Origin: an uncultured archaeon
Lineage (GTDB): Archaea > Iainarchaeota > Iainarchaeia > Iainarchaeales > Iainarchaeaceae
Direction: 5' to 3'
Assembly (NCBI GenBank): GCA_964577555.1
Contig: CAZNZM010000004.1
Coordinates: 1 to 32,000 of the forward strand
Length of the DNA: 32,000 nt
The translations under genes and the position numbers were made by a program. The notes beneath the pieces were generated by a model. That model ran no database searches. It was not told the origin of the DNA and saw nothing but the letters and a program-made list of their open reading frames with translations. Shown here one piece after another: positions 1 to 32,000 of this stretch (position 1 is its first letter; every line of letters begins with the position of its first letter).

Positions 1-167
1 AAAAAAAATAATTAAAAAAAAATGACAAAAAAAGCAGCTAAAACAAAAAAAACAAAATCAATTTAAAAAAAAATAATTAAAAAAAATAAAAAAATGTCTA
101 AAAAAAAACAAATTACCTAAAAACACGACCCGCAAAAAAAATGCTAAAAAAAACTAAAAAAATAAAA
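1..167. repeat. A-rich, T-poor intergenic block cut by the window edge. It holds copy 1 of a ~145-nt direct repeat; copy 2 is at ~2991-3134.
   Basis: The string 'ataattaaaaaaaaatgacaaaaaaagcagctaaaacaaaaaaaacaaaatcaatttaaaaaaaa ... atgtctaaaaaaaaacaaattacctaaaaacacgacccgcaaaaaa..tgctaaaaaaaactaaaaaaa' is present in both places. Copy 1 carries an extra ~20 nt ('ataattaaaaaaaataaaaa'), and there are small A-run length differences. Confidence 0.85.
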
Positions 168-1190
168 CTACTTCTTTGAATTTTTACCAACACTAACCCG
201 CTTGGCCTTAACACTCTTGCCAACAAGGGATTTGACAACAGGAGCATATTTTTTCAACAAAGCCGCGACTTCAGAACTATCATAATCCTTCTTCATAATT
301 GTTTTTGCAAGCTCTGAAAGCTCCATTGGAAAAATAAATTTAGTACTTTTGCCTTCGCCAAGCTTTTCAAGAGCGCGAACATAATAATAGGCAAGAGCCT
401 TGTCACTGAGTTGTTCAGCTGCAGCTCTTACAGCTTCTATCTCGGCTTTGTGAGCTTCAGCAGACTCCATGCGCGCAAGCTTTCTTTGAGTAGCGGCTTG
501 CTTCTCATGCATTGAATCAAGCACAGACCTTGGAAGTTGAATATCCTTTATTATAGCTTCCTCAACATTCACGCCCCAATTAACAGCCAAATTCTCAAGC
601 CTCTGCCTAATATCCTTATTAAGCCCCTCAATATCAGATATCAATTCACCCACATTATAAGAACCAGCCTTGTCCCTGATAAGTCCAATCATATACTGCT
701 TTGAAGCCAATACATAATCATCAACTTTAGTAACACTATTTATTATTGACTGATTGTCACTGTTTATCTTCAAATAAACAACAGCATCAACAGTCACTTC
801 AATATTGTCCTTTGTGACAACCTCCTGCTTTGGAATATCAATAGTTTTTGTCCTCAAATCAACCAATATATATTTTTCAAAAGGGGGAAAAACAATAGTC
901 CAACCCGGCCCAGCAACCCTGCTTACCTTTCCAAGAGTAAAAACCACGGCTCTTTCATACTCCAAAAGCTTGAGAATAAAATCATACTTTGCAATCAAAT
1001 AAAGAACCACTACAAGAGGAACAAGCCAATAAAGATTAGCCAACAAAAAACTTTGATACCGAAAAACCAAAAAAGCAACAATAATAATCGCCAAACCCAC
1101 AAAGAAAAAAACATTCCGCTTAAACAAATCATCGCCATTCTTATCTCCATGCACTGAATGACCCGCATTATTATGAACATTGCCCGACAA
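168..1190 (-). CDS. SPFH/band-7 family membrane protein (stomatin/prohibitin homologue)
   Basis: 340-aa ORF with N-terminal TM helices. The SPFH core reads 'ERAVVFTLGKVSRVAGPGWTIVFPPFEKYILVDLRTKTIDIPKQEVVTKDNIEVTVDAVVYLKI', followed by an Ala/Glu-rich coiled-coil tail. The ORF opens with TTG at 1190 and has no nearby in-frame ATG, so the start is uncertain. Confidence 0.9.
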   Translation of the reverse strand: MSGNVHNNAGHSVHGDKNGDDLFKRNVFFFVGLAIIIVAFLVFRYQSFLLANLYWLVPLVVVLYLIAKYDFILKLLEYERAVVFTLGKVSRVAGPGWTIVFPPFEKYILVDLRTKTIDIPKQEVVTKDNIEVTVDAVVYLKINSDNQSIINSVTKVDDYVLASKQYMIGLIRDKAGSYNVGELISDIEGLNKDIRQRLENLAVNWGVNVEEAIIKDIQLPRSVLDSMHEKQAATQRKLARMESAEAHKAEIEAVRAAAEQLSDKALAYYYVRALEKLGEGKSTKFIFPMELSELAKTIMKKDYDSSEVAALLKKYAPVVKSLVGKSVKAKRVSVGKNSKK

Positions 1191-1204
1191 AACAAAACGC
1201 CTCT

Positions 1205-1237
1205 AAATTTATAACCCAAATATCCATTTATATATTA
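1205..1237. promoter_or_regulatory. Divergent promoter spacer with two TATA-like boxes
   Basis: A 68-nt spacer lies between divergent genes. 'aaatttataa' (~1205-1214) sits ~20 nt from the minus-strand start at 1190. 'atttatatatta' (~1226-1237) sits ~25-30 nt upstream of ATG 1259. The spacing fits archaeal leaderless or short-leader mRNAs. Confidence 0.45.
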
Positions 1238-1258
1238 CGTTTTATACAATATGATAAC

Positions 1259-2503
1259 ATGAATAATTCAGAAAACATCTTAGTAGTTAATGTAGATAGA
1301 GACAACGACCTTGGAAAAAAAACAGGAATACAAGGCCCAGTAATTGGCAGAAAAGCATGCATAAAAGCAGCTGCAACACTGGCTCTCAAAGACCCAACAG
1401 AATCAGATGCAAACAGCATATTCGGCGCAGTAAAAAAATACGACGAAATAAAACAACACGCAAACGTTGAAATAGCAATATTAACAGGAGTAGGAAAAAC
1501 AGGATTCGAATCAGACCACAAAATAATAGAACAACTTGAAGCAGTGCTTGAAAAATTCCCAGCCACAGGCTTCGTACTCGTAACAGACGGAGCCGAAGAC
1601 GACCAAATAATCCCAATACTCCAAGGAAAAGGCCAAATAATTTCAAAAGAAACAATAATAGTCAAACAAGCCAACGAAGTGGAAAGCACATACTACACAA
1701 TCAAACAAGCACTACAAGACCCAGACTTTGCCAGAACATTCCTGCTAGTGCCAGGAATAATAATTTTACTATGGGGCATACTCGCATACATAGGACAAGA
1801 AAAACTCTTTTTCACAAGCATGCTACTAATAGGAGGATCATACCTAATACTAAAAGGCAGCGGACTTGAAAACAAAATAGTCGCAGCAATAGAATCATTA
1901 ATAAAAAGCATATCGCTGCAAAGAGTAAGCTTTCCAATATATCTTCTCACAATAATTCTTTTCCTCTTCGGAATATACCAAACAATAATAGAAATAACAA
2001 TAAACAGACCAATAACAATTTCAATATACGAAGCAATAGGGCAAATAATTCTCTATCTTGCCTTAAGCACAATATCTTTTATAATAGGAAAAATAGTTGA
2101 CGCAATACAACTCAAAAAAGCATACTACCTCAGAAAATACTTCCTATCAGGCTCAGCAGTTTTCATAATATGGTTTACACTAGACTCGGCAAGACAAGTA
2201 CTTGCAAACAAACCATACGCAGACTTAAGCTGGTTCGGGCTAAACATGATGGCAGCAACAATACTGGCATACGGAGCATACAAAGTCTCACAACTACTAG
2301 ACATGAGAAAAAAAATAACAAAAATGCTAATAGGCCTGCCAGTTTACAGCAAAGACGGAAAATGGATAGGCAACGTGGAAACAGTAAAGAAAAAACAAGG
2401 AATAGAATACAAATCCAACAAAACAGGAAAAACAAACCAATTACAAACAGGGGAATTCACTCTAAGCGAAGGAAAAATCATAATACAAACAACGCAAAAA
2501 TAA
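1259..2503 (+). CDS. Archaeal polytopic membrane protein, DUF373-like N-terminal domain with a PRC-barrel-like C-terminus
   Basis: 414-aa ORF. The soluble N-terminus 'ILVVNVDRDNDLGKKTGIQGPVIGRKACIKAAATLALKDPTESDANSIFGAVKKYDEI ... LVTDGAEDDQIIPILQ' matches my recollection of the DUF373 signature. About 6 TM helices follow. The C-terminus 'LIGLPVYSKDGKWIGNVETV' resembles a PRC barrel. The family name is from memory and was not searched. Confidence 0.6.
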   Translation: MNNSENILVVNVDRDNDLGKKTGIQGPVIGRKACIKAAATLALKDPTESDANSIFGAVKKYDEIKQHANVEIAILTGVGKTGFESDHKIIEQLEAVLEKFPATGFVLVTDGAEDDQIIPILQGKGQIISKETIIVKQANEVESTYYTIKQALQDPDFARTFLLVPGIIILLWGILAYIGQEKLFFTSMLLIGGSYLILKGSGLENKIVAAIESLIKSISLQRVSFPIYLLTIILFLFGIYQTIIEITINRPITISIYEAIGQIILYLALSTISFIIGKIVDAIQLKKAYYLRKYFLSGSAVFIIWFTLDSARQVLANKPYADLSWFGLNMMAATILAYGAYKVSQLLDMRKKITKMLIGLPVYSKDGKWIGNVETVKKKQGIEYKSNKTGKTNQLQTGEFTLSEGKIIIQTTQK

Positions 2504-3198
2504 AAATCGGTTTCAAACAAAACAAAACCAAAAACAAAAAAAACTACTACAAAAAAATAATAAAAAATAAAGTTGCCAAAAAAAACAACATTGGCTCAAA
2601 AAAACCAAACCAAAAACAAAAAATAAAAAAAAACGCCAAAAAGAATAAAAAACTACAAAAATTGACTAAAAAAACAAAAAATACGCTAAAAAACAGATTG
2701 ACAAAAAAACAATTCAAAAAAATGGAAAAAAATTGGCTCGCCAAAAAAAAACAAAAAATGACAAAAAAATCAACCAACAAAAAAAAGAATCAAAAAAAAA
2801 AGCAAAAAAAACTAGCCAAAAAAAACAACATTGGCTCAACAAAAAAAACCAAGCCAACAAAAACAAAAAAAAATAAAACAAACCCACAAAAAAAATGGCT
2901 CACAAAAAACAATCACAAAAAAATGACTAGCAATACCGAAAAAAACAAAAAAAAAGCAAATTTAAAAAAAAACATCAAACAAAAAAAACCAAGAAAAAAA
3001 ATAATTAAAAAAAAATGACAAAAAAAGCAGCTAAAACAAAAAAAACAAAATCAATTTAAAAAAAAATGTCTAAAAAAAAACAAATTACCTAAAAACACGA
3101 CCCGCAAAAAATGCTAAAAAAAACTAAAAAAAATTTAAACAAAATAAAGATCAAAAAAAAGAATTTCAAAAATTAAAAAAAAACAAGAAGAAAAAAAA
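2504..3198. repeat. Long A-rich/T-poor intergenic mosaic repeat block at a convergent gene junction
   Basis: ~695 nt with no credible ORF. It is built of recurring words: 'a(a/t)tggctca(c)aaaaaaaac', 'aatgacaaaaaaa', 'actagccaaaaaaa', 'ttgacaaaaaaa'. Sub-segments recur elsewhere: ~2751-2825 matches ~19122-19195, ~2917-2960 matches ~8191-8235, and ~2991-3134 matches 1-163. Confidence 0.85.
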
Positions 3199-5136
3199 TC
3201 AGGCAGGACTGACAACCTTGCCAACCTTCAAACCCGACTTTGAACTCCTTCCTTTCAAAGAAATTATTTTATCCAAATCCACAAGAAGCTTACTTTTTTC
3301 AGGACAATCCAAAAAAGCGTTTTCAAGAACATCATAAATTGAAGAAACAGGAACAAGCTTTATTTTTTTCAAATAATCAGCAGGCAACACAATATCACCA
3401 ACATTCGATTTTGGAATAATCACTTCCTTAAAACCTGCATTTATCGCAGCAAGAACTTTTGCAGAAACACCCCCAACAGGCAAAACCTCGCCCCTCACAC
3501 TCAAAGAACCAGTCATTGCAAGACTTTGCTTTACAGGAATCCTTTCCAAAGCAGAAATAACTGCAGTAGCAACACTCACTGAAGCCGAATCACCTTCGAC
3601 ACCACTATAAGACTGCAAAAACTGAATATGCAAATCATGTCTAGAAATATCCTTTCCAGAAAGCTTCTTAACCAAAGCAGAAACATTCTGAACCGCTTCC
3701 CTAGCAATTTCACCAAGTTTCCCAGTGGCAATAAGTTTGCCTTCAGCACTAGATTGCGCAGGAGCTATTTCAGCCTCAATAGGCATTACAAGCCCAGCAT
3801 CACCATCAGCCATAACAGCAAGCCCATTAACCCTGCCAACAGCAAAGCCCTCACTCAAATAAACATCATAATCCTTCTTCTCCTCAATCATCTTATTCAC
3901 GATTTGCTGCTCAAGAGTCCTAGCACTCATTTTAGCCTCAATAACATCCTGCCTTAAAACAAGCTCATGCCCCTTCTCCTTAGCAATATCGCCAGCGGCC
4001 CTTACAAGACCGCCCAAATCCCTCAACTTCAAAGTAAGCTTATTCTTCCTGCCAGCGCGCCTTCTCGCCTCAAAAATAATCTCATCAACAGCATCCATTG
4101 AAAAATGAGGAATCTTACCATCCTTTTTGACTTCCTGAGCAACAAACTGAACAAGCTTCTTCCTATTAACTTCATTATCATCAACATCAATATTCATGTA
4201 AATCTCATAACCATAACCCCTAATACGAGAACGAAGAGCAGGATGAACCTTTTCCAAATCATGATAATTCCCAGCAGCTACAAGAACAAAATCACAAGGA
4301 ATCGGCTCAGTACGAGTCATGGCGCCAGAACTTAACTCGCTCTGCCCAGTAATAGAATATTTCTTCTCCTGCATTGCAGTAAGAAGCTCCTGCTGAGACT
4401 TTTGAGACAAAGTAGCAATCTCATCAATAAAAAGAACACCACCGCTTGCACGATGAATCATGCCAGGCTCAACACGAAGATGAGCAGGCGTACCAAGACC
4501 TCCACTCTGCAAAGGATCATGCCTAACATCGCCAAGCAAAGAACCAGCCCTCGCACCAGTAGCATCAAAAAAAGGAGCAACCTTTTTACCAGCATTATTA
4601 ATAAGCAATTTAGGAATAGCAACACCAGAACGCATCTTCATCTGAGAACCAAGCACAAAACCAATCATCAAAAAAGCCCCAACAATAAGCGTAGCAGCAT
4701 AAACAACATCAGGAATAAACTTGAGCTGCCAAACAACCCAACTAAGAATAAACCAACCAAAAGGAAGAATCATGCCCAAAAGCCTAGCATTATCATCCTG
4801 AGCCTTAGCCTCAAGCTTTGCTTGTTCAACAATCCTCTGCCCTTCGCCAGCACGAACAACACGCACAAGAGGATTATTCTGGTCATCATCATTAGGATAA
4901 ATAAGCACATCATTAAGCTTATTCAAAGGCATAATCTCAGCCATAGCCTTTGCCAAAAGAGACTTGCCAGTGCCAGGCTGACCAACCAAAAGCACATTCC
5001 TTTTCTGTGCAGCAGCCTTGCGAATAAGTTCAACAGACTTATCCTGCCCAATAACCTGATCAATCAAAAGCTTAGGAACTTCAACATCAGCAGTTGACTT
5101 TATATCCTTCAACTTCACATTTTTAGACTTTGACAT
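3199..5136 (-). CDS. lonB: Archaeal membrane-bound ATP-dependent Lon protease (LonB type)
   Basis: 645 aa. Walker A is 'GQPGTGKS'. A TM hairpin is inserted in the AAA+ module ('[45 protein letters not shown]'). The C-terminal Lon protease domain carries '[19 protein letters not shown]' and '[21 protein letters not shown]'. ATG at 5136. Confidence 0.95.
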
Positions 5137-5191
5137 ACAAAAGAATAAGCAAGAGAATAATTAAAATAACTTATCAAATGCTAAAAAACAA

Positions 5192-5761
5192 CTAAATTCT
5201 TGCAGATTTTCCAAAATAACCTCTCCTCTTTATTTTCTCGGTCTCAAAACGCAAATAACCAGGCAAATTAAACTTTCTAGGATCCAAATTTGAACCAACA
5301 ACATCCAATTTCCGATTAACAAAAACATACTTGTAATTAGTAATCAAATAATAAAAACCAAAAGCAACTAATTTTTCTTTTTCTGATGAAAAACCCGGAG
5401 AACCTACATCAAAAGGGCCAGGATCAAAATACTTTTTAACAGCAAAATAATAATCAGTCAATTCACGAGCAACAGCCAAAGCATTAGACCTCACAATCCT
5501 ATTACCTCTCTTAAAACCTTTAATAACACCAAAAACACCCCCCAACATAGTTCCCAAAAGACTCGCACCAACCTTATACTTTTCAGGAAAAGAAAAATGC
5601 ACAACCGGAAGACTTCCAACAGCAGAAAAACCGGCGCCAATAACACCAGCATACTTTGCAGATTCATACCTATCCAAACGAGCACCTCTCAACTGATCAA
5701 GAACAGAAACAAGTTTTACAGGCAACTCGCCAACAAGAACCCTTTTTACCTTGCGAGACAT
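5192..5761 (-). CDS. Hypothetical protein with two glycine-zipper-like hydrophobic segments
   Basis: ORF 5192..5773 opens with TTG. The first ATG, at 5761, gives 'MSRKVKRV...'. The Gly-rich segments are 'AGVIGAGFSAVGSLPVV' and 'ASLLGTMLGGVFGVIKG'. I recognise no family. It lies between the repeat protein and lonB on the same strand. Confidence 0.6.
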   Translation of the reverse strand: MSRKVKRVLVGELPVKLVSVLDQLRGARLDRYESAKYAGVIGAGFSAVGSLPVVHFSFPEKYKVGASLLGTMLGGVFGVIKGFKRGNRIVRSNALAVARELTDYYFAVKKYFDPGPFDVGSPGFSSEKEKLVAFGFYYLITNYKYVFVNRKLDVVGSNLDPRKFNLPGYLRFETEKIKRRGYFGKSARI

Positions 5762-5824
5762 AAAAAAAACCAAAACAATAAAAACAAATCAAAAATAATA
5801 AACTTTCGACAAAAAATACTAAAA

Positions 5825-6721
5825 TTACTCGCTAATCTTCAATGCATGCCTAACAACGCTTCTTACAAAAGCAACTATTTCCTTCTCATCTCCCTTTTTC
5901 AAAAGCCTTAAAAAATTCTTGGAAAAAACCATTTTCCTAAACGCAGAATCATGAATTGCGCCACCATACTTGCCCCTGCCAACAAAAACAAGGCGTTTAA
6001 ACACAGGATTTCTAACCAAAAAAACAAAAATGGGATAAGAAAACAAATTCCTAAAATCATCATACTTAAGCGCACTCCTCACATTCGAATCACCAAACAC
6101 TTCCAACAAAACAGGATTAGCAAAATCAACCTTTACTTTATCATAAAGAAAATTTACAAAATCATGATCCTGAACCACGCCTCTAACTTCAGGATAACCA
6201 AGCAACTTTACAACCACAGGATAAGCAAGAGACTTTATAAATTCAGGATAACGAAGAGCCTTAACAACCTCAGGATAACAAAGCACCGCCCTAAACCCAG
6301 AATCATTAAGAGCAATTATAAATTCAGGATAACGAAGAGCAGCCCTAACATTACTATTATCAAGCAAATTTAAAAAATCGGAATCGCGAAGAGCAGCCCT
6401 GAACTCGCTATATTGAAGAGCATTGACAAACTCAGAATAACGAAGCAAAATCCTTGCCTTAGGATTAAGAAAAAAATCCAAAACACTATTATCATTAACA
6501 AGCAATTTTACAAATTTAGAATCGCCAAGCAACCTCCTAAACTCAGAAGAACCAAGCAACCTTAAAAAATTAGAATTATTAAGCAAATATAACGCCTTGG
6601 GATTGCGAAACAACACCGCTCCAAGCTTAGGATAACGCTGCAAAAACTTAGCAAAATAACTAACTCTCCCTCTTCCGCGCTTTCCTTTTAAATTTCTTTG
6701 TTCTGCTCGCCTTGAAATCAT
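5825..6721 (-). CDS. Hypothetical protein made of ~24 tandem nonapeptide repeats, consensus [Y/D/N]-[P/S]-[E/D]-F-x-x-[L/A]-L-x
   Basis: ORF 5825..6742 opens with TTG. The ATG at 6721 gives 'MISRRAEQRNLKGKRGRGR...'. Residues ~37-252 read as 9-mers: 'YSEFVNALQ YSEFRAALR DSDFLNLLD NSNVRAALR YPEFIIALN DSGFRAVLC YPEVVKALR YPEFIKSLA YPVVVKLLG YPEVRGVVQ DHDFVNFLY ...'. The DNA shows a 27-nt periodicity (recurring 'tcaggataacgaagagc'). Confidence 0.7.
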   Translation of the reverse strand: MISRRAEQRNLKGKRGRGRVSYFAKFLQRYPKLGAVLFRNPKALYLLNNSNFLRLLGSSEFRRLLGDSKFVKLLVNDNSVLDFFLNPKARILLRYSEFVNALQYSEFRAALRDSDFLNLLDNSNVRAALRYPEFIIALNDSGFRAVLCYPEVVKALRYPEFIKSLAYPVVVKLLGYPEVRGVVQDHDFVNFLYDKVKVDFANPVLLEVFGDSNVRSALKYDDFRNLFSYPIFVFLVRNPVFKRLVFVGRGKYGGAIHDSAFRKMVFSKNFLRLLKKGDEKEIVAFVRSVVRHALKISE

Positions 6722-6931: not shown

Positions 6932-7846
6932 ATGACGGACAAAATAAAAGTTGTTTTTCTTGGAACAAGCGCAAGCACGCCGACAAAAGAAAGAAACCTA
7001 AGCAGCATAGCCATTAGATTCGAAGGGGAATGGCTCTTATTCGACATACCGGAAGGCACACAAAGACAAATGATGAAAGCAAAAGTCAGTTACTTGAAAA
7101 TAAACAATATTTTCATCTCACACTTCCACGCAGACCACTTCTTAGGATTAGGCGGATTGCTCGCAACAATGAACATACATGGAAGAGACTGGCCGCTCAC
7201 AATATACGGGCCAAAAGGAATACAAGAAAAAGTAAAACAAACATTGGAATTGGCAATGCTTGAACCACTATTTGAAATAAAATGCATAGAAGTCAAAAAA
7301 GGAAAAATACTTGAAAGAAAAAAATACTTCATAGAAGCATTTCCATTAAAACACGAAATAAACTGCTTTGGATACTTTTTCAAAGAAACAGACAAAAAAG
7401 GAGAATTCAACAGACAAAAAGCAATAGAATTAGGCATACCAATAGGCCCTTTATTCAGAGAACTCCAAGAAGGCAAAAAAATAAAAGTGAACGGAAAAAT
7501 AATAAAACCAGAAGAAGTACTAGATGAAACCAAAGGAAGAAAAGGAAAAAAAATATCAATAGTGTTCGACACACTACCAACAAAACAATACTACAAAGCA
7601 ATAGAAGAATCCGACATACTAATCCACGAATCCTCTTTTTTGGAAGAAAAATCAAGCAGAGCAAAAGAAACAATGCACACAACAGCATTGCAAGCAGGGC
7701 AAATCGCAAAAGAAACAAAATGCAAAAAACTAATACTCACACATCTAAGCGCAAGACACAAAGAATCGGATAAATTTGAAAACGAAGCAAGAAAAGAATT
7801 CCACAACGCAATAGTGGCAAAAGACCTCATGGAAATAGAAATTTAA
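6932..7846 (+). CDS. rnz: Ribonuclease Z (tRNA 3' endonuclease), short form
   Basis: 304 aa. N-terminus 'KVVFLGTSASTPTKERNLSSIAIRFEGEWLLFDIPEGTQRQMM', metallo-beta-lactamase motif 'ISHFHADHFLGLGGLL', and 'LTHLSARH' near the C-terminus. A TATA-like 'tttttaatttta' sits ~20-30 nt upstream. Confidence 0.9.
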   Translation: MTDKIKVVFLGTSASTPTKERNLSSIAIRFEGEWLLFDIPEGTQRQMMKAKVSYLKINNIFISHFHADHFLGLGGLLATMNIHGRDWPLTIYGPKGIQEKVKQTLELAMLEPLFEIKCIEVKKGKILERKKYFIEAFPLKHEINCFGYFFKETDKKGEFNRQKAIELGIPIGPLFRELQEGKKIKVNGKIIKPEEVLDETKGRKGKKISIVFDTLPTKQYYKAIEESDILIHESSFLEEKSSRAKETMHTTALQAGQIAKETKCKKLILTHLSARHKESDKFENEARKEFHNAIVAKDLMEIEI

Positions 7847-8440: not shown

Positions 8441-8449
8441 GTGTTTTAT

Positions 8450-9172: not shown

Positions 9173-9178
9173 AAAAAA

Positions 9179-12723: not shown

Positions 12724-12736
12724 AAAGGTGAAAGAA

Positions 12737-17606: not shown

Positions 17607-17615
17607 GGCAATAAA

Positions 17616-18317: not shown

Positions 18318-18319
18318 AA

Positions 18320-18350: not shown

Positions 18351-18371
18351 TTTTCTATTAAATAAACAATA

Positions 18372-21780: not shown

Positions 21781-21852
21781 AAAAAACAAACTATAAATAT
21801 AAATTTTACAACAACACACAAAAATTAATAAAGCAATAAAACACCCAAATTA

Positions 21853-22521: not shown

Positions 22522-22897
22522 AAAAACTCGAATTTGCAAAAAAATGACAAAAAAAACAGCTAGCCAAAAAAACAAAACAAAAAAAATACAAAAAAATAAT
22601 TCTATTTGAAAAAAAATAAATAGGCTCGCAAAAACAAACAACAAAAAAAACCAATGACAAAAACAAAAAAATAATTCAAAAAAAGTTCACACAAAAAAAC
22701 ACAATAAAAAAAACACTCGGCTTACAATCCCAAAACAAAAAAACTAGTACAAAAAAAATCAAAAAAAAACAAATTCTAAAAAAAATGGCTCACCAAAAAA
22801 AACAACTGGCTCGGCGCAAAAAAAAATCAATGACACAAAAAAACAAAAAAATAATTCAAAAAAATTAGAGAAAATTAGCTAAAAAAAATAAAAAAAA
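22522..22897. repeat. A-rich/T-poor intergenic mosaic repeat block at a convergent junction
   Basis: ~375 nt with the same words as the other blocks ('aaaatggctcaccaaaaaaaac', 'cagctagccaaaaaaac'). It has an internal direct repeat, 'caatgaca..aaaaa..caaaaaaataattcaaaaaaa', at ~22641-22681 and ~22828-22863. Confidence 0.8.
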
Positions 22898-25087: not shown

Positions 25088-25139
25088 AAAAATAAAAAAA
25101 ATAAATCTAATTTTAAAACCATGCCATGCAAAAAAAAAA

Positions 25140-25955
25140 TTAATTAAAATCTCCAACAAACAAACTAATACCGCCATTAGGCAACAAAGAAACTATCTCA
25201 TCAAGCCGAGAAGAAAAATCAACACCAAATTTTACAGAAAACTTTGCAACAACCTTCTTTGCAACCTCGCCCTTAGACTCCCTGCCAAAACCCAAAAAAA
25301 CATGATAATCACAACGAGACTTAACAGCAGAAGGCGGACCAGACATCAATTCAAAATCACTGCCAACCTTCTTGCAACCAATAGCAAACTCCAAAGGCGT
25401 CCTTTTGAACCAAACCCTCTTACCATAAACCATAAAAGCTCCAAGCCCAATTGCTTCACCAGAAGGAGATCTTTTAGTTACTTGTTCAGGCTTTGCAGAA
25501 TAAACATCAATACCTGAAATCTGCTCCTGCCAAGCCTTAGAAAACACAGCAGCAAAAACAGCGGCTTCCCTCATAGAAATTTCCCCCGGTTGCCTTCCAT
25601 CACACTTCAACACAACATGCGAAGCACCATGAATATCAGCATGAAAATAAACATCATCAGGCTTCATAAACTTGTTAACCAAATCCTCATTGCTCTTAGC
25701 ATCACGACCTCCAATAACAAGAAAACCCTCACTAGTAAAAAACCAATGAAAACGCTCAAACCACTTTCTCTCACGCTTCTTCAAAACCTGTTTCCCCTTT
25801 GCTTTATGTTCAGCCACTCCAACAATTTTAGAATCCAAAACAGACATGCCAACAGAAAGCCCGTCAAGCTTCCTCTTCCACTTCTTGGCAAGCTCATAAT
25901 AAGCAGCAGCATTTTCATTAACAGATTTTGTAAAATCCAATTCAAGCATCATCAA
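25140..25955 (-). CDS. NFACT-R (DUF814) domain protein, matching only the C-terminal half of Rqc2/FbpA-type NFACT proteins
   Basis: 271 aa. 'LDFTKSVNENAAAYYELAKKWKRKLDGL' is followed by 'RKWFERFHWFFTSEGFLVIGGRDAKSNEDLVNKFMKPDDVYFHADIHGASHVVLK', the DUF814/NFACT-R signature. No NFACT-N domain is present. The gene ends 52 nt upstream of the cdc48 start. Confidence 0.8.
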   Translation of the reverse strand: MMMLELDFTKSVNENAAAYYELAKKWKRKLDGLSVGMSVLDSKIVGVAEHKAKGKQVLKKRERKWFERFHWFFTSEGFLVIGGRDAKSNEDLVNKFMKPDDVYFHADIHGASHVVLKCDGRQPGEISMREAAVFAAVFSKAWQEQISGIDVYSAKPEQVTKRSPSGEAIGLGAFMVYGKRVWFKRTPLEFAIGCKKVGSDFELMSGPPSAVKSRCDYHVFLGFGRESKGEVAKKVVAKFSVKFGVDFSSRLDEIVSLLPNGGISLFVGDFN

Positions 25956-26479
25956 TCAAAACCCTTTGAACGCCTAATAGCCCTTATCATCGACTCAGTC
26001 CTAGAATCAGATTTATATAAAGGATCAGTTATATAAAAAATTTCCCTAGCCTTAAAAAGATCGGAAATACCTGAAATTGACTCAAAATATTTTTTCCTAA
26101 TGTCAGTATTATAAGAATCAACATCATTGTAAATGTGCCTGCTAATAAAATTAAAATTGTCGTGACCTATTATGCCGGACAAAAAATACAAATTATCATC
26201 CTTTCTCACTTGCTCGACAAACTTCTCAAGAACCGACTTCTTAGTCAAATCAAGCTGAAGCAACGAAACAACTTCAAGCTTATAACCAAGCTTCCTAAAA
26301 TCAGCCTTCGGTCCATAACCAACAACCAAACCCTGCTTTGCAAGAAAATCAAGAGAAGACTTAACAGTAGCCTTATGATAACCAGTATATTTTTGAATAG
26401 CCCTGATATTAGGCACAACAGCACCAGGCTTCAACAAAGCAGCAAGAATATTCAACCTGACCTCGTCATCCAATTTCAT
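25952..26479 (-). CDS. Lrp/AsnC-like transcriptional regulator (wHTH plus a small alpha/beta C-terminal domain)
   Basis: Met-13 of ORF 25952..26515 gives 'MKLDDEVRLNILAALLKPGAVVPNIRAIQKYTGYHKATVKSSLDFLAKQGLVVGY', an Lrp-style N-terminus. The C-terminal ~100 aa fit a RAM-like domain. ATGs at 26515 and 26491 are also possible starts. The stop overlaps the next gene's ATG (ATGA). Confidence 0.55.
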   Translation of the reverse strand: MKLDDEVRLNILAALLKPGAVVPNIRAIQKYTGYHKATVKSSLDFLAKQGLVVGYGPKADFRKLGYKLEVVSLLQLDLTKKSVLEKFVEQVRKDDNLYFLSGIIGHDNFNFISRHIYNDVDSYNTDIRKKYFESISGISDLFKAREIFYITDPLYKSDSRTESMIRAIRRSKGFD

Positions 26480-26644
26480 TACAACAGCCATAAAACAAAA
26501 ATAAGTATGATACATTAAAAAGACTTTTTAATGTCCAAAAAAGACATTCAAAATTGGCTAATCTATATAAACTTCACAATAAGCAAAACTAATTGTAACG
26601 AGAAAAAGGGGGAATCCAATCCTAAGAAAAAAACAGAAAAGTTT

Positions 26645-26756: not shown

Positions 26757-28532
26757 TCAAGACTCTTTTAAATTATCATAAACTGAAACCCTGATAGAAA
26801 TCTTAACAGAATTTGACACACCCTTGTCATTAGAAACAGTAAGAAAAACATTGTGGTCACCAACATCATTAACACTAAAAGTTTTGGAAAAAGTTTTGCC
26901 TTCAACAGGCTCAGAATCATCAACCCTCCAAACCCAAGAAACAATTTTATTGCCAAGAGGATCAAAAGAATTGCTCCAAAAATCGACATCAACATCATTG
27001 CTTTCAGAAGTTATTATTACCGGATTTAGCGGAGAAAAACCTATCAAAGCAACAGGCTTCAAAGACAAAGGAGAAACAGAAACAACATCATACGGCTCCT
27101 GTTTTTTATAAACCCAAATCTTAACCTCTCTTTGAGTCCCATCCTTCAACGGCAAAGTCTTATTCACAACATACCTTTCCGCATTATCCTTTTTTGTACC
27201 AAACTCAAACTTCTTGCCAACAACAGCATCAATCGTTGAAATTATGCTCTCTTTCAACAACGAAATGTCACAACCACCTGAACTACAATCAATAATATTT
27301 CCCTTGCTTACTCCGTCACCGCCTGCAAGCAACGCCATATGCTCCTTTATCTTGTTAATAGTTTCAGGGTTTGAATGCAAACCGGAAGAAGGAAAAGAAA
27401 CACAATTAAGTTTGCCATTACAATCAACACAATCATTCGAAGTAACACAAAGATTGCCGACAGAATCGCAAATAGGCGGAGCTCCATTGCCTTTAGGATC
27501 GGTAAAAATCGGAACAACTCTATAATCATAATTCTTAAGAACAGAAATAGCGTGATTCACAAAAACAAGAGAACGATTGCCATTACTCAAATTACAAGTT
27601 TTATAATAAACCCTAACGTTACTGCCAGTTTCTTGATAACTATAAGGAGTATCAGACTCAGAACCAGAACTCAATTCATCAGAAGCCGGAAATATAAAAG
27701 TCACGGTTGGAAACTCCGACTCCATCCTTGCCTCTGGAACTTCCTTGGCAACATAAGCCGAAGCAGTAGCCCAATCCTCGTAAAACTCTCCTTTAAGAAT
27801 GTTCATATCTGGACTGCAATTAGACATGCAACAAATACGGGCTGGAAACTTGTCAACACCAACAAAATAAGGGCTTTGTGGGTTTTTAAGCGAATCCACA
27901 AAATACTTATTATAAATACCAACCCCCAAAGAAGGACAAACATTGCCTGTGTTTGTCACAGGTATTTTATGGTCGGCTTCAATATAAGAACAATCAATAT
28001 CAATACTGGTACAATCAAACGAATTATTAGTATTGGTTTTTAGAATGAAAACTTTCTCTTCAAAAATAAAATCCCCCTTGGTGCGAAAAAAAGACTTTAT
28101 GTCAGGGATTATAACATTCAATTTGTCAATATCGTCACGCATGCTGTCAGAACCATCGACAATGAAATAAAGCCTTATTTTCATTTTAGGCGGAATAATC
28201 TCCATATAATAATTTTCTTTCCCATAAATAGAGTCAAATATTTTTTCAACAATCTCCTTTCTATTAACATTTTGCCCATAATAATTGAAATCATAAGACC
28301 ATGAATATATCATGTCACCCATCAACTGTGCAACACTCATCTTAATGGTTGGTTCTTCAATCTGCAAAATCTCTCCAAAATCTGCTGAAATACGATGCTG
28401 TTCAAAAGCAATCTTATTGCTTTCAAAAACCTTTACGGCTTGGTCAAGCTGATTGAATTGAATCAAAGCCCAACCAGAAAGAAGCATGACAACAATAATT
28501 ACTATTGCAATAATATCTGAAACCGCAGACAT
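26757..28532 (-). CDS. Pilin-anchored vWA-PKD protein (candidate pilus tip adhesin)
   Basis: 591 aa. The N-terminus 'MSAVSDIIAIVIIVVMLLSGWALIQ' is a pilin-type helix with Asp at position 6 (the S-x-V-S-D motif, +5 counted from Ser-2). 'RLYFIVDGSDSMRDDIDKL' is a vWA beta-strand with a DxSxS MIDAS motif (nt ~28143-28157). A Cys-rich middle region brings the total to 14 Cys. The C-terminal PKD-like domain reads 'FWSNSFDPLGNKIVSWVWRVDDSEP...HNVFLTVSNDKGVSNSVKISIRV' (nt ~26784-27056). Confidence 0.85.
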   Translation of the reverse strand: MSAVSDIIAIVIIVVMLLSGWALIQFNQLDQAVKVFESNKIAFEQHRISADFGEILQIEEPTIKMSVAQLMGDMIYSWSYDFNYYGQNVNRKEIVEKIFDSIYGKENYYMEIIPPKMKIRLYFIVDGSDSMRDDIDKLNVIIPDIKSFFRTKGDFIFEEKVFILKTNTNNSFDCTSIDIDCSYIEADHKIPVTNTGNVCPSLGVGIYNKYFVDSLKNPQSPYFVGVDKFPARICCMSNCSPDMNILKGEFYEDWATASAYVAKEVPEARMESEFPTVTFIFPASDELSSGSESDTPYSYQETGSNVRVYYKTCNLSNGNRSLVFVNHAISVLKNYDYRVVPIFTDPKGNGAPPICDSVGNLCVTSNDCVDCNGKLNCVSFPSSGLHSNPETINKIKEHMALLAGGDGVSKGNIIDCSSGGCDISLLKESIISTIDAVVGKKFEFGTKKDNAERYVVNKTLPLKDGTQREVKIWVYKKQEPYDVVSVSPLSLKPVALIGFSPLNPVIITSESNDVDVDFWSNSFDPLGNKIVSWVWRVDDSEPVEGKTFSKTFSVNDVGDHNVFLTVSNDKGVSNSVKISIRVSVYDNLKES

Positions 28533-28955
28533 TCAAACACCTTTAAAGCAAAAATAAACCCGGCCAAGGCATTTTTGCCCCTTACTATTAATAATATTCA
28601 CGACGTAAGAATATTTCCTTTCACAAGAATCATTATTGCCTATTGCCCAAGACTTTTCACTACAACCAAGAAAATTTTCCATTTTGACAACATAACCGGA
28701 AACAACAGGAGTAGTACAATTAGAATTAATGCCAAACCTATCAAACTTGTTTTCGTCAAAAGTGCCAATGCAACGAAAAACAAAATCCCTTACTTGCCCG
28801 CTTTCCTGAAGAGGCTTTATTGAAGGAGTAAGCTGATTTACCGGAACAATAGAAGAATAACCAATATAAACAAGAAACAAAACAACAAAAACAATTATGA
28901 CAACAAGCATAAAAGTTGAAATCATAGAATAAATGCCTCTACAATCCATTGACAT
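28533..28955 (-). CDS. Cys-rich pilin-like protein
   Basis: 140 aa. 'MSMDCRG|IYSMISTFMLVVIIVFVVLFLVY' has a basic leader ending in Arg-Gly and then a hydrophobic helix. There are 6 Cys after the helix. The stop abuts the next gene's ATG (28532). Confidence 0.7.
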   Translation of the reverse strand: MSMDCRGIYSMISTFMLVVIIVFVVLFLVYIGYSSIVPVNQLTPSIKPLQESGQVRDFVFRCIGTFDENKFDRFGINSNCTTPVVSGYVVKMENFLGCSEKSWAIGNNDSCERKYSYVVNIINSKGQKCLGRVYFCFKGV

Positions 28956-29367
28956 CTATTCTGCCCCCGTTTTTTCTGTTCACCAAAAGCTCGGTTACAT
29001 AAGCAAGGTTAATGCTCAAATTAGAATCTGTACTGCAAAGCAAGATTCTGCATTGCATTATCTCGCCTGAATCAAAACAAATATTATTATCCCTAACCAA
29101 AAACAAGCCTTTTTCAGTCAAAGGATTATACTTATACTTGAAATTATAAGAAGCACAAGCATCATTAATCAAAGTCTGCATTTTAGTAACATCATTCTGA
29201 ACCCGCTCGGCTTCAGGCCTCAAATTCTTGAAATTACCCAAAAGCCACATAGAAGCAAGCAATATAGCAGTTATAACTGCCAACCACAAAACAACATCTG
29301 ACACCAAACTAGCCTTTGAATTCAAATTCAAAACATTCAAATCAGGCTTTGCACTCAATTTTAACAC
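28939..29367 (-). CDS. Cys-rich pilin-like protein
   Basis: 142-aa ORF with a GTG start. An in-frame TTG at ~29325 would give 'MNSKA|SLVSDVVLWLAVITAILLAS' with Asp at +5. There are 4 Cys after the helix. The N-terminal helix is paralogous to that of the 29342..29800 product. Confidence 0.7.
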   Translation of the reverse strand: MLKLSAKPDLNVLNLNSKASLVSDVVLWLAVITAILLASMWLLGNFKNLRPEAERVQNDVTKMQTLINDACASYNFKYKYNPLTEKGLFLVRDNNICFDSGEIMQCRILLCSTDSNLSINLAYVTELLVNRKNGGRIDVNGL

Positions 29368-29800
29368 CGCCCTTAACCCTTAAAAAAGAACAAGTAAAAT
29401 CAGTTACTGAAAAAGCTTCCCTGTGAAAAGTAGTGTCAAGGTTCAAATCATAATCCTGCGGAGGACAAGAACATTTTACACAATTACTACTGCCTTGAAA
29501 CTCCATACAAATTTTACTGCCAGAAGACCTGGCAAAAACAACAGAACCGCTTGCAAGAGGAAACTTTTCAGACAACAAAGTGTCAACAGCAGAATTGCAA
29601 ACAAATTCGCACTTCTGCCCCATTCTTGCAAGCGAATTTTTTATTTGCTGGAGTTTTTGTTGATCAGAACCGGTAGAAACCAAATTAGCCACTATTAAAA
29701 GCCCAAAAACAGCTGTTATTACGCCAACATAGAGCCAAACAGCCTGATCCACAAAATCTCCCCAAAATGAAAGCAAATATAGACATTCATGAACATTCAA
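29342..29800 (-). CDS. Cys-rich pilin-like protein
   Basis: 152-aa ORF with a TTG start and no in-frame ATG at the 5' end. '...SFWG|DFVDQAVWLYVGVITAVFGLLIVANLV'. There are 8 Cys after the helix, including 'SNCVKCSCPP'. The start is uncertain. Confidence 0.65.
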   Translation of the reverse strand: MNVHECLYLLSFWGDFVDQAVWLYVGVITAVFGLLIVANLVSTGSDQQKLQQIKNSLARMGQKCEFVCNSAVDTLLSEKFPLASGSVVFARSSGSKICMEFQGSSNCVKCSCPPQDYDLNLDTTFHREAFSVTDFTCSFLRVKGGVKIECKA

Positions 29801-30356
29801 TGTCTATTGCACCATCGCCATCGCTGTCAAATGCACTGGAAAACCAATGAAACTTTTTATCATCATCAGACAAACCAGCATAACACCCGCCAGGCTTGAT
29901 GAATTGCATCAAAAGCTCGGTGGCTTCCTCTCTTGACTTGCCTTCTCTTTTCCAATAATTGCAAAGAAGATCCTTGCACGAAGACATATTCAAATTGGAA
30001 GAGCCGCAAGAAGTCAAAAGAGAACAATAAACCTTGTCGTCACAAACACCAACCCCTGCCTTGAAGCCAGTATTATTATACGACGGAAGAGCCCCCTGCT
30101 TCAAACGAAAATCAAAAGATTTTATGCAAAACTGCGCCAAACTATCAGCATCTCCAGCAGCACACAACCTTGAACATTCAGTCTTGCCACTGGAAATCTT
30201 GTTTTCAAAAGCGGCTTTATCCTGCTCCTCCTGAATTTTAGTGCCCTGCTCCTTGAACTGCTGAGAAACAAGCTGCAAAACCAGCATTGCAACAGCCAAA
30301 AGAACAAAAAGCACAATGAATATTTGAATTGCCATTTCCATTCCTTTCTGATTCAT
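29787..30356 (-). CDS. Cys-rich pilin-like protein with a C-terminal acidic D-x-D-G-D-G loop
   Basis: 189 aa. 'MNQKG|MEMAIQIFIVLFVLLAVAMLVLQLV'. There are 10 Cys after the helix. The C-terminus is 'FDSDGDGAIDIECS'. Its ATG overlaps the upstream stop (ATGA). Confidence 0.75.
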   Translation of the reverse strand: MNQKGMEMAIQIFIVLFVLLAVAMLVLQLVSQQFKEQGTKIQEEQDKAAFENKISSGKTECSRLCAAGDADSLAQFCIKSFDFRLKQGALPSYNNTGFKAGVGVCDDKVYCSLLTSCGSSNLNMSSCKDLLCNYWKREGKSREEATELLMQFIKPGGCYAGLSDDDKKFHWFSSAFDSDGDGAIDIECS

Positions 30357-30763
30357 GTTTTTACCTCCACTTTACCTTTATCAACATTCCAATTTATAAA
30401 AAAAGTTTTTACGCTTGCTTTCTCAACATTGCCAAGCACGTTGACATCGCCAACCAAAGCAACCAAATTCTCAGGAACAATATTATACGGTTCGTTAGAA
30501 TGAACAGTAAAACAAATACCGCTATGCAAATTCACACCATAATTCTTATTATAACACTCTTTTATCAAAGCAACCACTTCCCTGTCCGAAACAGAAGTAA
30601 CATCAATAAGATCAGCTCCTGTTGGCGGCTTTTTATCCCCACCAAAAAAACCCAAAATAGAATTCTTTCCAGCACCTATAAGATCCTGACTGAAATTAAT
30701 TACAAGAGTGCCAACTACCAAAACTATGAACAAGGTTATTATCAATTGAACAGGCATCTCCAT
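30353..30763 (-). CDS. Pilin-like protein
   Basis: The ORF opens with GTG at 30775. The ATG at 30763 gives 'MEMPVQLIITLFIVLVVGTLVINF', which shares the 'MEM-x-x-Q' start with the mature end of the next gene's product. It has 2 Cys. A 116-nt spacer upstream holds the TATA-like 'tttaatttaaatatttt' on the minus strand. Confidence 0.7.
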   Translation of the reverse strand: MEMPVQLIITLFIVLVVGTLVINFSQDLIGAGKNSILGFFGGDKKPPTGADLIDVTSVSDREVVALIKECYNKNYGVNLHSGICFTVHSNEPYNIVPENLVALVGDVNVLGNVEKASVKTFFINWNVDKGKVEVKT

Positions 30764-30891
30764 AAAAAAAACCACTCAAAACAAGAATAAAACGATTTCA
30801 AAATATTTAAATTAAACGCTTAAAGAACTTTCCAAAAAAACAAACTTGTCCTATAAACAACAAAAAAATAATGACGATTAGGCAAAAAAAA

Positions 30892-31323
30892 TCAAGTTAT
30901 TTTCAACGCATGATTCCCGTTTTCATTGCAAGAAATATTTAAAATCCTTGGCAAAACAAGCGGCGGATTGTCAATCAAAATGCGACAATCAGTACAATAA
31001 TTCATTTTTCTAAAAAAATTATTCAATTTAGCTTCGTCGAGCTCCCCAATTTTGTTGCCATCAAAAGACTCGTCAAGAAGAACAACATTGCCGCAATCCT
31101 TATAAACTTCGCCAAACTGGCACTCTTGCCAACAATAATTAAGCTTTGCCGCAAACTTTGGAAAATTAACTTTGGTTAGGCTTGGTCCGTTGGCAGGAGG
31201 AATAAACATGTTCCTTACAGTATCACCAATCTTGTTAAAATCAAATTGAAAAACAAAAGCGGTTATCAAACCAGCAACTATAATAGTGAAAAAAAGAAAA
31301 CCAACAATTTCAATTGTTTCCAT
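30892..31323 (-). CDS. Cys-rich pilin-like protein (leaderless type)
   Basis: 143 aa. 'METIEIVGFLFFTIIVAGLITAFVF' has Glu at position 5 and no basic leader. There are 6 Cys after the helix. Confidence 0.7.
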   Translation of the reverse strand: METIEIVGFLFFTIIVAGLITAFVFQFDFNKIGDTVRNMFIPPANGPSLTKVNFPKFAAKLNYCWQECQFGEVYKDCGNVVLLDESFDGNKIGELDEAKLNNFFRKMNYCTDCRILIDNPPLVLPRILNISCNENGNHALKIT

Positions 31324-31327
31324 AACA

Positions 31328-31405
31328 TCACTTCAACATGCTTGTAACATACAATATAATCGCTCCAAAAGCTATTACTGCAATAATAACTTCAATCACA
31401 ACCAT
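31328..31405 (-). CDS. Candidate 25-aa micro-ORF encoding only a pilin-type helix (speculative)
   Basis: My own translation of the 93-nt spacer gives 'atggttgtgattgaagttattattgcagtaatagcttttggagcgattatattgtatgttacaagcatgttgaagtga', that is MVVIEVIIAVIAFGAIILYVTSMLK. Glu is at position 5, as in 'METIE' of the next gene. The T-rich minus strand readily produces hydrophobic ORFs by chance. Confidence 0.25.
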   Translation of the reverse strand: MVVIEVIIAVIAFGAIILYVTSMLK

Positions 31406-31416
31406 TATTGTTTGAT

Positions 31417-32000
31417 TCACCTGACAAGCACCCCTTTGAAAATAATTTCAGTGAAAGCATAATAACCGCCAAACAACAAAGCACTATAAATCAAAAAAGA
31501 AATGGCAAGATTCTCGTAAATGGTTTTTGCAATTTTATATTTGTCCGTGCCATCCCTTATATTTGAAAGAAAAAGAGAAAGTATAATAGAAGTTTCAATA
31601 AAATACGCGCCAACAATTATCTCAAGAATAGTAGGAGGAATTATGTCTTTTATCTTCACAAGCTCAAGATTAATAGGATTACTTCCAACACTTGTCAATA
31701 CTTCATTAATCTTCTGCTTAATGAATTCAAGAGACATGACAATAGCAGCAGCCATTACAGTAGCAGTGGTTGCCAACAAAGGAGCCAACACCGTGACGGA
31801 AATACTTACAATAGAAACCGTTTCAGCCAAAAGAGTTTGAATATAATCATCCAACTTGTAAGTTGAAAGAGTCTGCTCCCTTATCATCTTGGCTGATTTG
31901 GCCGCGCTTTTCTGGTCAATCTCGGTAAAAATAACTATCCTCTTAATAATTTGAACCATGCGCCTTGAAGGTGCAACAGAAGGCAAAAACTTTTCAACCA
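31417..32000 (-). CDS. C-terminal part of a polytopic membrane protein, possibly a FlaJ/TadC/PilC-type pilus platform protein (5' end outside the window)
   Basis: The reading frame stays open to the window edge; the TTG at 31986 is only the ORF finder's start. There are at least 3 long hydrophobic segments separated by a soluble stretch. The family is inferred only from its position directly upstream of a row of pilin-like genes. Confidence 0.4.
   Translation of the reverse strand, partial: VEKFLPSVAPSRRMVQIIKRIVIFTEIDQKSAAKSAKMIREQTLSTYKLDDYIQTLLAETVSIVSISVTVLAPLLATTATVMAAAIVMSLEFIKQKINEVLTSVGSNPINLELVKIKDIIPPTILEIIVGAYFIETSIILSLFLSNIRDGTDKYKIAKTIYENLAISFLIYSALLFGGYYAFTEIIFKGVLVR

Follow-up and report, generated by a model that had tools for sequence, protein, structure and literature searches.

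The window and its genes

The first 32,000 nucleotides of contig CAZNZM010000004.1 (GenBank assembly GCA_964577555.1), which we call the window, belong to the chromosome of an archaeon from the Iainarchaeia/Diapherotrites group of DPANN, and along their whole length the plus (forward) strand is rich in A and C and poor in T and G, whichever strand the genes lie on. The TopA homologues and Orc1 loci that we compared with it carry the source names Candidatus Diapherotrites or Iainarchaeum. Our gene map consists of 40 gene calls from the Joint Genome Institute (JGI) with their Pfam matches, at window coordinates -470 to 41,323. Its minus-strand genes include those for Band7, LonB, the RFC large subunit, Orc1/Cdc6, CDC48, NFACT-R, a T2SSE ATPase and TopA, and its plus-strand genes those for DUF373, RNase Z, an NTP transferase, PheS, PheT and an M50 peptidase; the small hypothetical genes and a Lys-rich open reading frame (ORF) at 2362-3018 have no significant Pfam match. 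Neither Rfam-family RNA genes nor tRNA genes turned up in the window, and a scan of four extension loci, bringing the total to ~85 kb, gave no tRNA gene either.

In JGI metagenome 3300037501, the window corresponds in reverse complement to positions 23173-55172 of contig Ga0394875_0000821 (55,643 bp). We completed this contig with a contig from another JGI sample (L049, L051) that is 100% identical over a 10-kb overlap, and the rebuilt sequence is exactly 55,643 bp long. The next contig, from the same metagenome, is Ga0394875_0000611 (64,251 bp), whose first 15.1 kb are our locus L054; its adjacency and orientation come from a sister-strain contig (L053) that spans the junction. At the left contig end, a look-up with Band7 yielded only a 2.5-kb contig. 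The 70.7 kb examined in this way hold 34 plus-strand genes (29.7 kb) and 36 minus-strand genes (32.8 kb), a balanced orientation.

Base composition follows the physical strand

On its plus strand the window contains 13900 A, 6975 T, 6854 C and 4271 G (43.4%, 21.8%, 21.4% and 13.3%; G+C 34.8%), giving an AT skew of +0.332 and a GC skew of -0.232, or an excess of 216 A and 81 C per kb. The sign of the skew is constant: AT skew is positive (+0.14 to +0.57) and GC skew negative in every 2-kb interval. Among 316 overlapping 500-nt intervals, AT skew falls below zero in three (minimum -0.04, at 201-900) and GC skew rises above zero in 14 (maximum +0.08), most of them at 11.3-14.0 kb, in and around pheS and pheT. 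The first-pass annotation of this DNA had noticed the bias from two hand-counted samples of 60 nt, and both counts are exact (A25 T15 C13 G7 at 3601-3660 and A30 C14 G8 T8 at 12061-12120).

The evidence that ties the bias to the physical strand comes from 4-fold degenerate sites, counted in the 40 gene calls. In plus-strand genes these sites are A.648, C.144, G.093 and T.116 (n=1113), and in minus-strand genes, read on their own coding strand, A.111, C.104, G.114 and T.671 (n=3443). Read on the plus strand, the 4-fold AT skew is thus +0.70 in plus-strand genes and +0.72 in minus-strand genes, independent of the direction of transcription, and binomial tests of A against T return p = 2e-100 for one gene set and, for the other, a value below machine precision. 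At all third positions the plus-strand AT skew is +0.71 in plus-strand genes and +0.58 in minus-strand genes, and gene by gene it ranges from +0.40 to +0.78, with GC skews of -0.09 to -0.78 and one sign in 40/40 genes. The asymmetry is therefore not only real but stronger than first estimated; neither a weak 4-fold skew nor one that follows transcription, the two outcomes that the first-pass annotation had named as fatal to its claim, was found, the 4-fold AT skew being ~0.7 and its coding component ~0.

The G/C side of the earlier claim held in part. Plus-strand GC skew is modest at 4-fold sites (-0.22 in plus-strand genes, -0.05 in minus-strand genes); it is strong only at sites of 2-fold degeneracy and over third positions as a whole (-0.48 and -0.52). 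Similarly, the coding strands of minus-strand genes are T- and G-rich, as had been said, but they are not purine-poor (A+G = 0.50).

Transcription-coupled damage or repair of the non-transcribed strand, combined with a biased gene orientation, is another way to skew a strand, and a coding-direction component does exist in bulk sequence, where AT skew is ~+0.45 and GC skew ~0 over plus-strand genes, as against ~+0.15 and ~-0.3 over minus-strand genes. This difference is the ordinary coding-strand effect superposed on the strand effect. When the 4-fold AT skew is split, the strand component is +0.70 and the coding-direction component -0.02; the genes of the two strands number 34:36, third-position and non-coding skews keep one sign, and intergenic DNA is the most skewed of all. 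We consider skew driven by transcription or by gene orientation refuted, with practically no chance of being the cause.

The same holds for an artefact of sequencing or assembly, or a chimera, in favour of which we found no point. Contigs of the same strain from four other samples (L002, L005, L006, L049) are 100% identical to ours, strains that are 10-13% diverged and come from other metagenomes have the same asymmetry, reading frames are intact and domains conserved in all 70 genes, and damage to reads could not be specific to one strand of an assembly. The identical independent contigs and the diverged strains refute this explanation, and we give it virtually no weight.

The bias can be followed along the gene map. 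The Band 7/SPFH gene (168-1190, minus) lies in the weakest bulk AT skew of the window and has T81 against A22 at the 4-fold sites of its coding strand, and the adjacent DUF373 membrane protein gene (1259-2503, plus) has A111 C29 G15 T17. The three minus-strand genes at 3199-6721, lonB (3199-5136), hyp189 and hyp298, are T-dominated at coding-strand 4-fold sites (T218 and A23 in lonB). The plus-strand 4-fold AT skew is +0.79 in the RNase Z-like gene (6932-7846, plus), +0.61 in the NTP-transferase gene (8450-9172, plus), +0.78 in a metallo-beta-lactamase-fold gene (9179-9862, minus), +0.54 in the gene of a hypothetical 268-aa protein (9972-10778, plus) and +0.61 in a PIN_6 domain gene (10786-11196, minus). 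It is +0.68 in pheS (11254-12723, plus) and +0.82 in pheT (12728-14380, plus), where bulk GC skew comes closest to zero. The genes for the RFC large subunit (14610-15995) and Orc1/Cdc6 (16046-17158), both on the minus strand, have a skew switch on neither side.

In the second half of the window, four small plus-strand genes at 17148-18924 (hyp152, a helix-turn-helix regulator, a 63-aa pilin with a class-III signal, and hyp118) have 4-fold AT skews of +0.47 to +0.71, and four small minus-strand genes at 19456-21064, one of them for a 112-aa F/V/G-rich protein, have plus-strand values of +0.58 to +0.91. The M50 peptidase-like gene and hyp222 (21163-22521, plus) have +0.83 and +0.57. They are followed on the minus strand (22898-26491) by the genes for CDC48 (22898-25087), with T228 and A26 at coding-strand 4-fold sites, NFACT-R (25140-25952) and hyp179. 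In the remainder of the window (26757-32000, minus), a gene for a 591-aa PKD-domain protein, six for small pilin-like proteins and the beginning of one for a 622-aa protein have plus-strand 4-fold AT skews of +0.54 to +0.76; the gene of the 622-aa protein runs beyond the window end into a T2SSE ATPase cluster.

Two of these genes have further peculiarities. Most of hyp298 (5825-6721, minus), which has no significant Pfam match, consists of tandem repeats of 27 nt (nine residues), and Tandem Repeats Finder reports a period of 27 or 54 at 6185-6575. CDC48 (22898-25087) has 729 aa here and is free of inteins, and in the relative L047 (10175-13843) it has 1222 aa, with Intein_splicing and LAGLIDADG domains; inteins are also present in several TopA homologues of the clade.

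A-rich intergenic blocks

Pooled intergenic DNA is A.62, C.155, T.16 and G.064 on the plus strand, an AT skew of ~0.6 with the same sign as the 4-fold sites of both gene orientations. Because the intergenic and 4-fold compositions match, the neutral sites must be at a strand-specific equilibrium, which on the plus strand is A ~0.65-0.68, C 0.14, T 0.11 and G 0.09 whatever the direction of the genes. Mutation has long acted very differently on the two strands.

Five intergenic blocks are unusually long (230-700 nt) and 64-71% A, and four of the five have convergent flanking genes. Those between convergent genes are at 2504-3198 (A.68, C.15, T.11, G.06), at 14381-14609 between pheT and the RFC large subunit gene (A.69, T.11, G.06), at 18925-19455 (A.71, C.16, T.08, G.05) and at 22522-22897 (A.65, T.13, G.07); the fifth, at 7847-8449 (A.64), lies between two plus-strand genes. 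The block at 18925-19455 is the most extreme, with AT skew up to +0.77 and GC skew down to -0.61 in 500-nt intervals. The large blocks had been described as nearly T-free, which is not the case: they contain 8-14% T, and the rarest base is G, at 4-8%.

Modules of ~15 nt of the CAAAAAAAA type are common to the blocks, with motifs that include TGGCTCAC, CTTGAC and ATGAC. A 59-nt tandem repeat in 3.2 copies (8014-8202, 97% matches) within the block at 7847-8449 is made of such modules, and the block at 18925-19455 shares modules with those at 2504-3198, 7847-8449 and 22522-22897. The spacer motif had no match in a scan of viral contigs. Gene callers put tiny or Lys-rich ORFs into the blocks; the JGI call of 218 aa at 2362-3018, which overlaps the block at 2504-3198, is probably spurious.

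Effects on codons, proteins and gene signals

Which strand a gene lies on affects its codon usage, which is nearly opposite between the two strands, as well as its stop codon, the direction in which amino acids are replaced and the supply of oligo-T terminators. Lys is encoded by 376 AAA and 9 AAG codons in plus-strand genes and by 271 AAA and 414 AAG in minus-strand genes; for Glu the counts of GAA and GAG are 285 and 4 as against 234 and 278, for Asn those of AAC and AAT are 132 and 37 as against 42 and 342, and for Arg those of AGA and AGG are 64 and 6 as against 48 and 213. Ile is mostly ATA in plus-strand genes (298/410, 73%) and mostly ATT in minus-strand genes (430/566, with ATA at 22%). 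Heavy use of ATA requires an agmatidine-modified tRNA-Ile2. The stop codon is TAA in 24/34 plus-strand genes, and the 36 minus-strand genes end with TGA (22), TAG (9) or TAA (5).

The dependence of protein composition on the strand, which the first-pass annotation had pointed out, is real, and it is directional when the proteins are compared with their orthologues in relatives. Plus-strand products are enriched in T, I, E and K and minus-strand products in V, R, S, D and F, with Val at 3.5% and 9.5%, respectively. Against orthologues in 17 loci of relatives, replacements in plus-strand genes run V>I (453 vs 142 in the opposite direction), R>K (266 vs 41) and A>T (151 vs 45), and those in minus-strand genes A>S (343 vs 94), A>V (156 vs 70) and T>S (144 vs 64). 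These are the directions expected from coding-strand G->A in plus-strand genes and from changes to T in minus-strand genes. The two pilins that had been chosen as examples were counted correctly, the 63-aa pilin having seven Lys and one Phe and the 112-aa protein three Lys and 15 Phe.

These pilin-like proteins belong to one of two loci that resemble type IV pilus or archaellum clusters (T2SSE/FlaI ATPases, T2SSF/FlaJ, FlaK peptidase), one per strand. The first covers 17148-21064 and 26757-32000 of the window and goes on to ~36176, the second is at 10001-14451 of L051 and 55-2181 of L054, and both are rich in small proteins with class-III signal peptides. Because the clusters are on opposite strands, their paralogous pilin-like proteins differ strongly in composition.

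Runs of seven or more T number 7 on the plus strand of the window and 240 on the minus strand. A tract of T7-T10, the usual archaeal terminator signal, directly follows the stop codon in most minus-strand genes, and in most plus-strand genes (DUF373, RNase Z, pheT, hyp118, hyp222 and M50) the longest T-run within 60 nt of the stop is at most 4.

Long stop-free stretches antisense to real genes had been thought special to the plus strand. They are about as frequent opposite genes of either strand, at 1.35 per kb opposite plus-strand genes and 1.0 per kb opposite minus-strand genes. At window coordinates 36383-38440, beyond the window end (5111-7168 of L049), JGI calls one plus-strand ORF of 685 aa and the Logan caller four minus-strand ORFs of 94-212 aa. 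The base composition by codon position is that of real plus-strand genes (A.59 and C.24 at third positions), and the minus-strand ORFs give low-complexity translations rich in F, S and L, so the 685-aa gene is probably the real one; its product would be Cys-rich with an N-terminal hydrophobic segment. Here the asymmetry misleads gene prediction.

Selection on one strand, whether for purine loading, nucleoid structure, cheaper nucleotides or codon adaptation, might also produce such a bias, and the A-tract-rich spacers with their ~15 nt period could have a structural role. However, one composition is found at the 4-fold sites of both orientations and in the spacers. No property of transcripts or translation can be the target, since mRNAs are A-rich when made from one strand and T-rich when made from the other, and the opposite amino acid replacements forced on conserved proteins are apparently a cost. 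We regard selection as very improbable.

Direction of the bias

Sites with 2-fold degeneracy separate the two transitions. Plus-strand genes have 899 NNA vs 47 NNG and 491 NNC vs 139 NNT, and minus-strand genes 1690 NNT vs 268 NNC and 1448 NNG vs 671 NNA. Expressed on the plus strand, the A/G ratios are 19 and 6.3 and the C/T ratios 3.5 and 2.2 for the two gene sets, so the plus strand favours G->A and T->C together, despite a G+C of 35%. On the minus strand these are C->T and A->G, and both being favoured on one and the same strand is what characterizes a mitochondrion-like asymmetry. Since purines make up 74-78% of plus-strand 4-fold sites, transversions towards A must be favoured too.

A further comparison covered 1785 4-fold sites that the window strain shares with sister strains diverged by ~10% (L053, joined by L048 in the case of TopA and AsnC). 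Differences between A and G number 155 and those between C and T 32, and differences between A and C number 159 and those between G and T 40; strand symmetry would equalize each pair. If the process is treated as reversible, these pairwise differences translate into relative plus-strand rates (C>T = 1.0) of 6.4 for G>A, 5.0 for C>A, 3.8 for T>A, 2.6 for T>G, 2.1 for T>C, 1.0 for A>G and 0.4 for A>T. The composition shows an elevation, on the plus strand, of T->C and of all three changes to A (G->A, C->A, T->A), which on the minus strand read as A->G and as C->T, G->T and A->T, with rates that would be of about this order. A three-taxon polarization of TopA substitutions with a 73% identical relative as the outgroup was too saturated to use, and polarized counts would in any case carry no information at compositional equilibrium.

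Extent of the bias, and the relatives

We found no change of sign anywhere in the window or the whole 55.6-kb contig around it, nor over the initial 15 kb of the adjoining contig. Over the 70.7 kb the plus-strand 4-fold AT skew is +0.72 in plus-strand genes and +0.74 in minus-strand genes, and AT skew is below zero in no 1-kb interval, so that the absence of a flip that had been noted for the 32 kb, including the surroundings of orc1/cdc6, holds over more than twice the length. The orc1/cdc6 gene (16046-17158, minus) sits in uniformly skewed sequence, and because its start overlaps the divergent hyp152 by 11 nt, there is no intergenic space for an origin.

A single gene lacks the bias. The FlaK preflagellin peptidase gene (Peptidase_A24; 1060-2181 in L054 and 15230-16351 in L053), ~1-2 kb past the end of contig Ga0394875_0000821, has a 4-fold AT skew of +0.11 in L054 and -0.09 in L053, between neighbours at +0.6 to +0.9. 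This suggests an inversion or a horizontal acquisition that took place before the strains split and has not yet come to equilibrium.

The sister strains have the window's polarity at full strength. In L048 (IMG 3300035183), whose TopA is 91% identical in amino acids and 87% in nucleotides, the strand-linked AT skew, S(AT), is -0.80 in the orientation of TopA. In L053 (IMG 3300010938), which has ~89-91% nucleotide identity, the plus-strand 4-fold AT skew per gene is +0.57 to +0.97 except in FlaK. The latter sample is a co-assembly of hot-spring cores from Chocolate Pots, Yellowstone, at 40-52 C (PMC6137239).

More distant relatives are skewed only mildly. The closest of them, L047 (TopA 73% identical, syntenic, G+C 47%), has an S(AT) of -0.12 and an S(GC) of +0.11. 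A scan of genome contigs with Orc1 gave 16 Iainarchaeia loci (as classified in GTDB) at 44-65% identity, of which none is more than 65% identical and none extreme; in 14/16 the strand-linked AT skew, taken relative to orc1, runs the same way as in the window (S = -0.02 to -0.36), the exceptions being L017 (+0.11) and L018 (+0.01). Followed gene by gene, the 4-fold skew along the loci of the relatives has no convincing sign switch, including beside orc1. A TopA scan of metagenome contigs, which did not return the window's own contig, gave no close relatives (best match 57% identical). The relatives thus share the polarity at 5-10 times lower amplitude, and the lineage of the window would have amplified an asymmetry that is clade-wide. 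Judging from these sequences, the amplification appears to be recent as well as extreme, and the asymmetry behind it to be of the A/T type.

Replication as the likely source

That the asymmetry is mutational or repair-related, strand-specific and independent of gene orientation, as the first-pass annotation had proposed, is supported by a skew of one sign that is ~0.7 at 4-fold sites and ~0.6 in intergenic DNA. Based on the strand-linked skew, the neutral equilibrium, the substitutions still going on between sister strains, the shared polarity in the relatives and the bacterial-type GC skew seen in a member of the same phylum, which together support a mutational process linked to replication, we believe it somewhat probable that the window lies inside one replichore and that a replication-linked asymmetry has been amplified to an extreme in this lineage.

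Under this model the minus strand would be repeatedly exposed in single-stranded form as the template of the lagging strand. Lesions would arise there in single-stranded DNA, with cytosine turning into uracil, adenine into hypoxanthine, guanine being oxidized and bases being lost, and the polymerase would put A opposite these lesions (C opposite hypoxanthine). By analogy with bacteria, the minus strand would be the T/G-rich 'leading-strand sequence' of the usual convention; forks would then run from high to low window coordinates, from an origin located elsewhere. The strength of the effect is likely due to weak repair of deaminated, oxidized or abasic sites, or to long single-strand exposure in a slow-growing organism of warm springs.

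Several observations weigh against this account. The 4-fold GC skew is weak (-0.05 to -0.29), which makes the asymmetry chiefly one of A against T, unlike the G/C-dominated replication skew of bacteria, and the substitution rates given above are not those of polarized mutations. No origin or terminus switch was found within the 70.7 kb, and the link to replication and the fork direction thus come from analogy with bacteria and Ca. Forterrea. We saw a single orc1/cdc6 gene, and neither here nor in the locus of any relative does it coincide with a skew switch. Finally, we detected neither a gradient of the skew nor any other dependence on position over 42 kb (slope p = 0.20 and 0.76), a span too short to tell against a gradient on the scale of a genome.

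The alternative to an ordinary replichore is a single polarity around the whole chromosome, brought about by unidirectional or strand-displacement replication in which one strand stays single-stranded for long, as in mitochondria. The pairing of C->T with A->G on one strand is the signature of mitochondrial DNA, and a skew without a flip in 70.7 kb, with orc1/cdc6 at no switch, is what this mode of replication would give. The bulk parity violation, |A-T| + |G-C|, is 29.7% of bases, about twice that (~15%) of the bacterium Ch65 from the Candidate Phyla Radiation (CPR), for which replication in one direction has been proposed (PMC7143001). On the other side, 70.7 kb is probably less than 10% of the genome, so either model predicts that no flip would be seen there; a two-armed skew is known from Ca. 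Forterrea, which belongs to the phylum of our archaeon; and the lack of a slope over 42 kb counts here as well. We therefore consider chromosome-wide polarity unlikely, although it is the most serious competitor of the replichore model.

Comparison with known systems

Strand asymmetry is a known phenomenon; its archaeal, A/T-dominated and extreme form is new, and our literature search found no description of such an asymmetry in DPANN archaea. In vertebrate mitochondrial DNA, which has a heavy and a light strand, one strand is A/C-rich and G-poor, C->T and A->G are paired on the opposite strand, and codon and amino acid usage depend on the strand. All three features are shared by our archaeon. 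The differences are that this is a cellular chromosome with housekeeping genes, that it has a strong additional transversion bias towards A, and that no gradient is seen over 42 kb. A neutral-site A/T skew of ~0.7 is in the range of animal mitochondria.

Among bacteria, separate codon usages of leading-strand and lagging-strand genes are known from Borrelia burgdorferi, Treponema pallidum, Chlamydia trachomatis and C. muridarum (PMC2089121). As in those genomes, G and T abound on one strand here and A and C on the other whatever the orientation of the genes, the effect is strongest at third positions, and codon usage is distinct. Unlike them, our case is archaeal, much stronger and mainly one of A/T: the third-position difference A-T is +0.50 in plus-strand genes vs -0.39 in minus-strand genes, and G-C is -0.14 vs +0.17, whereas in C. 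muridarum T-A is +0.099 on the leading vs +0.052 on the lagging strand and G-C is +0.090 vs -0.064 (PMC2089121). A further difference is that no switch at an origin or terminus is seen within the 70.7 kb.

Another parallel among prokaryotes is Ch65 (Ca. Chazhemtobacterium aquaticus), whose disparity is chromosome-wide (C 29.8% vs G 15.0%, A 27.9% vs T 27.3%); chromosome-wide G/C disparity also occurs in the CPR groups Collierbacteria and Beckwithbacteria (PMC7143001). Like Ch65, the archaeon belongs to an uncultivated small-celled lineage, one of its strands is strongly enriched irrespective of the distribution of genes, the trait is lineage-specific, and the habitat is warm, a thermal aquifer for Ch65 and, for a sister strain, a spring at 40-52 C. 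It differs in that A/T disparity dominates (43.4% vs 21.8%, with C/G at 21.4% vs 13.3%), in being one of the Archaea rather than the Bacteria, and in that 70.7 kb are known here, whereas the small genome of Ch65 is closed and was shown to have no switch.

Within its own phylum, Ca. Forterrea multitransposorum (Diapherotrites) has a two-armed cumulative GC skew of the bacterial type with an origin beside a cdc6 gene, and the curve served as a check of the assembly (PMC5905446). The two are alike as DPANN archaea of one phylum with a skew of the replication type; the skew here, unlike that of Ca. Forterrea, is extreme and mainly one of A/T, and the orc1/cdc6 gene of the window is not at a switch.

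A survey of 2026 concluded that archaeal chromosomes are largely without strand-specific mutational skew, with 7-8 excess G per kb in archaea vs 23-25 in bacteria (PMC12999951). Set against this, the window's surplus of 216 A and 81 C per kb is as unusual for an archaeon as the first-pass annotation had suspected, and the bias far exceeds any between strands in the archaeal surveys that we consulted. The neutral-site A/T skew contradicts the generalization of that survey and is far above the values of C. muridarum (PMC2089121).

What the asymmetry means for the organism and its relatives

One genome here has two codon dialects and two amino acid compositions, and most of its plus-strand genes lack oligo-T terminators. 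This has practical consequences: gene callers disagree, with one caller replacing what is probably a real 685-aa gene with four antisense ORFs that would be spurious, and strand-dependent protein composition could distort DPANN phylogenies and composition-based binning. If a single chromosome-wide polarity is true, the archaeon would be an A/T-type counterpart of Ch65 and of mitochondrial DNA, with a mode of replication that has no description for an archaeal chromosome in the literature we surveyed. The organism is a natural system in which the strand-specific spectrum of damage and repair in archaeal replication can be read straight from the sequence, and comparing its repair and polymerase gene content with that of its mildly skewed relatives could reveal the activities that normally suppress this spectrum.

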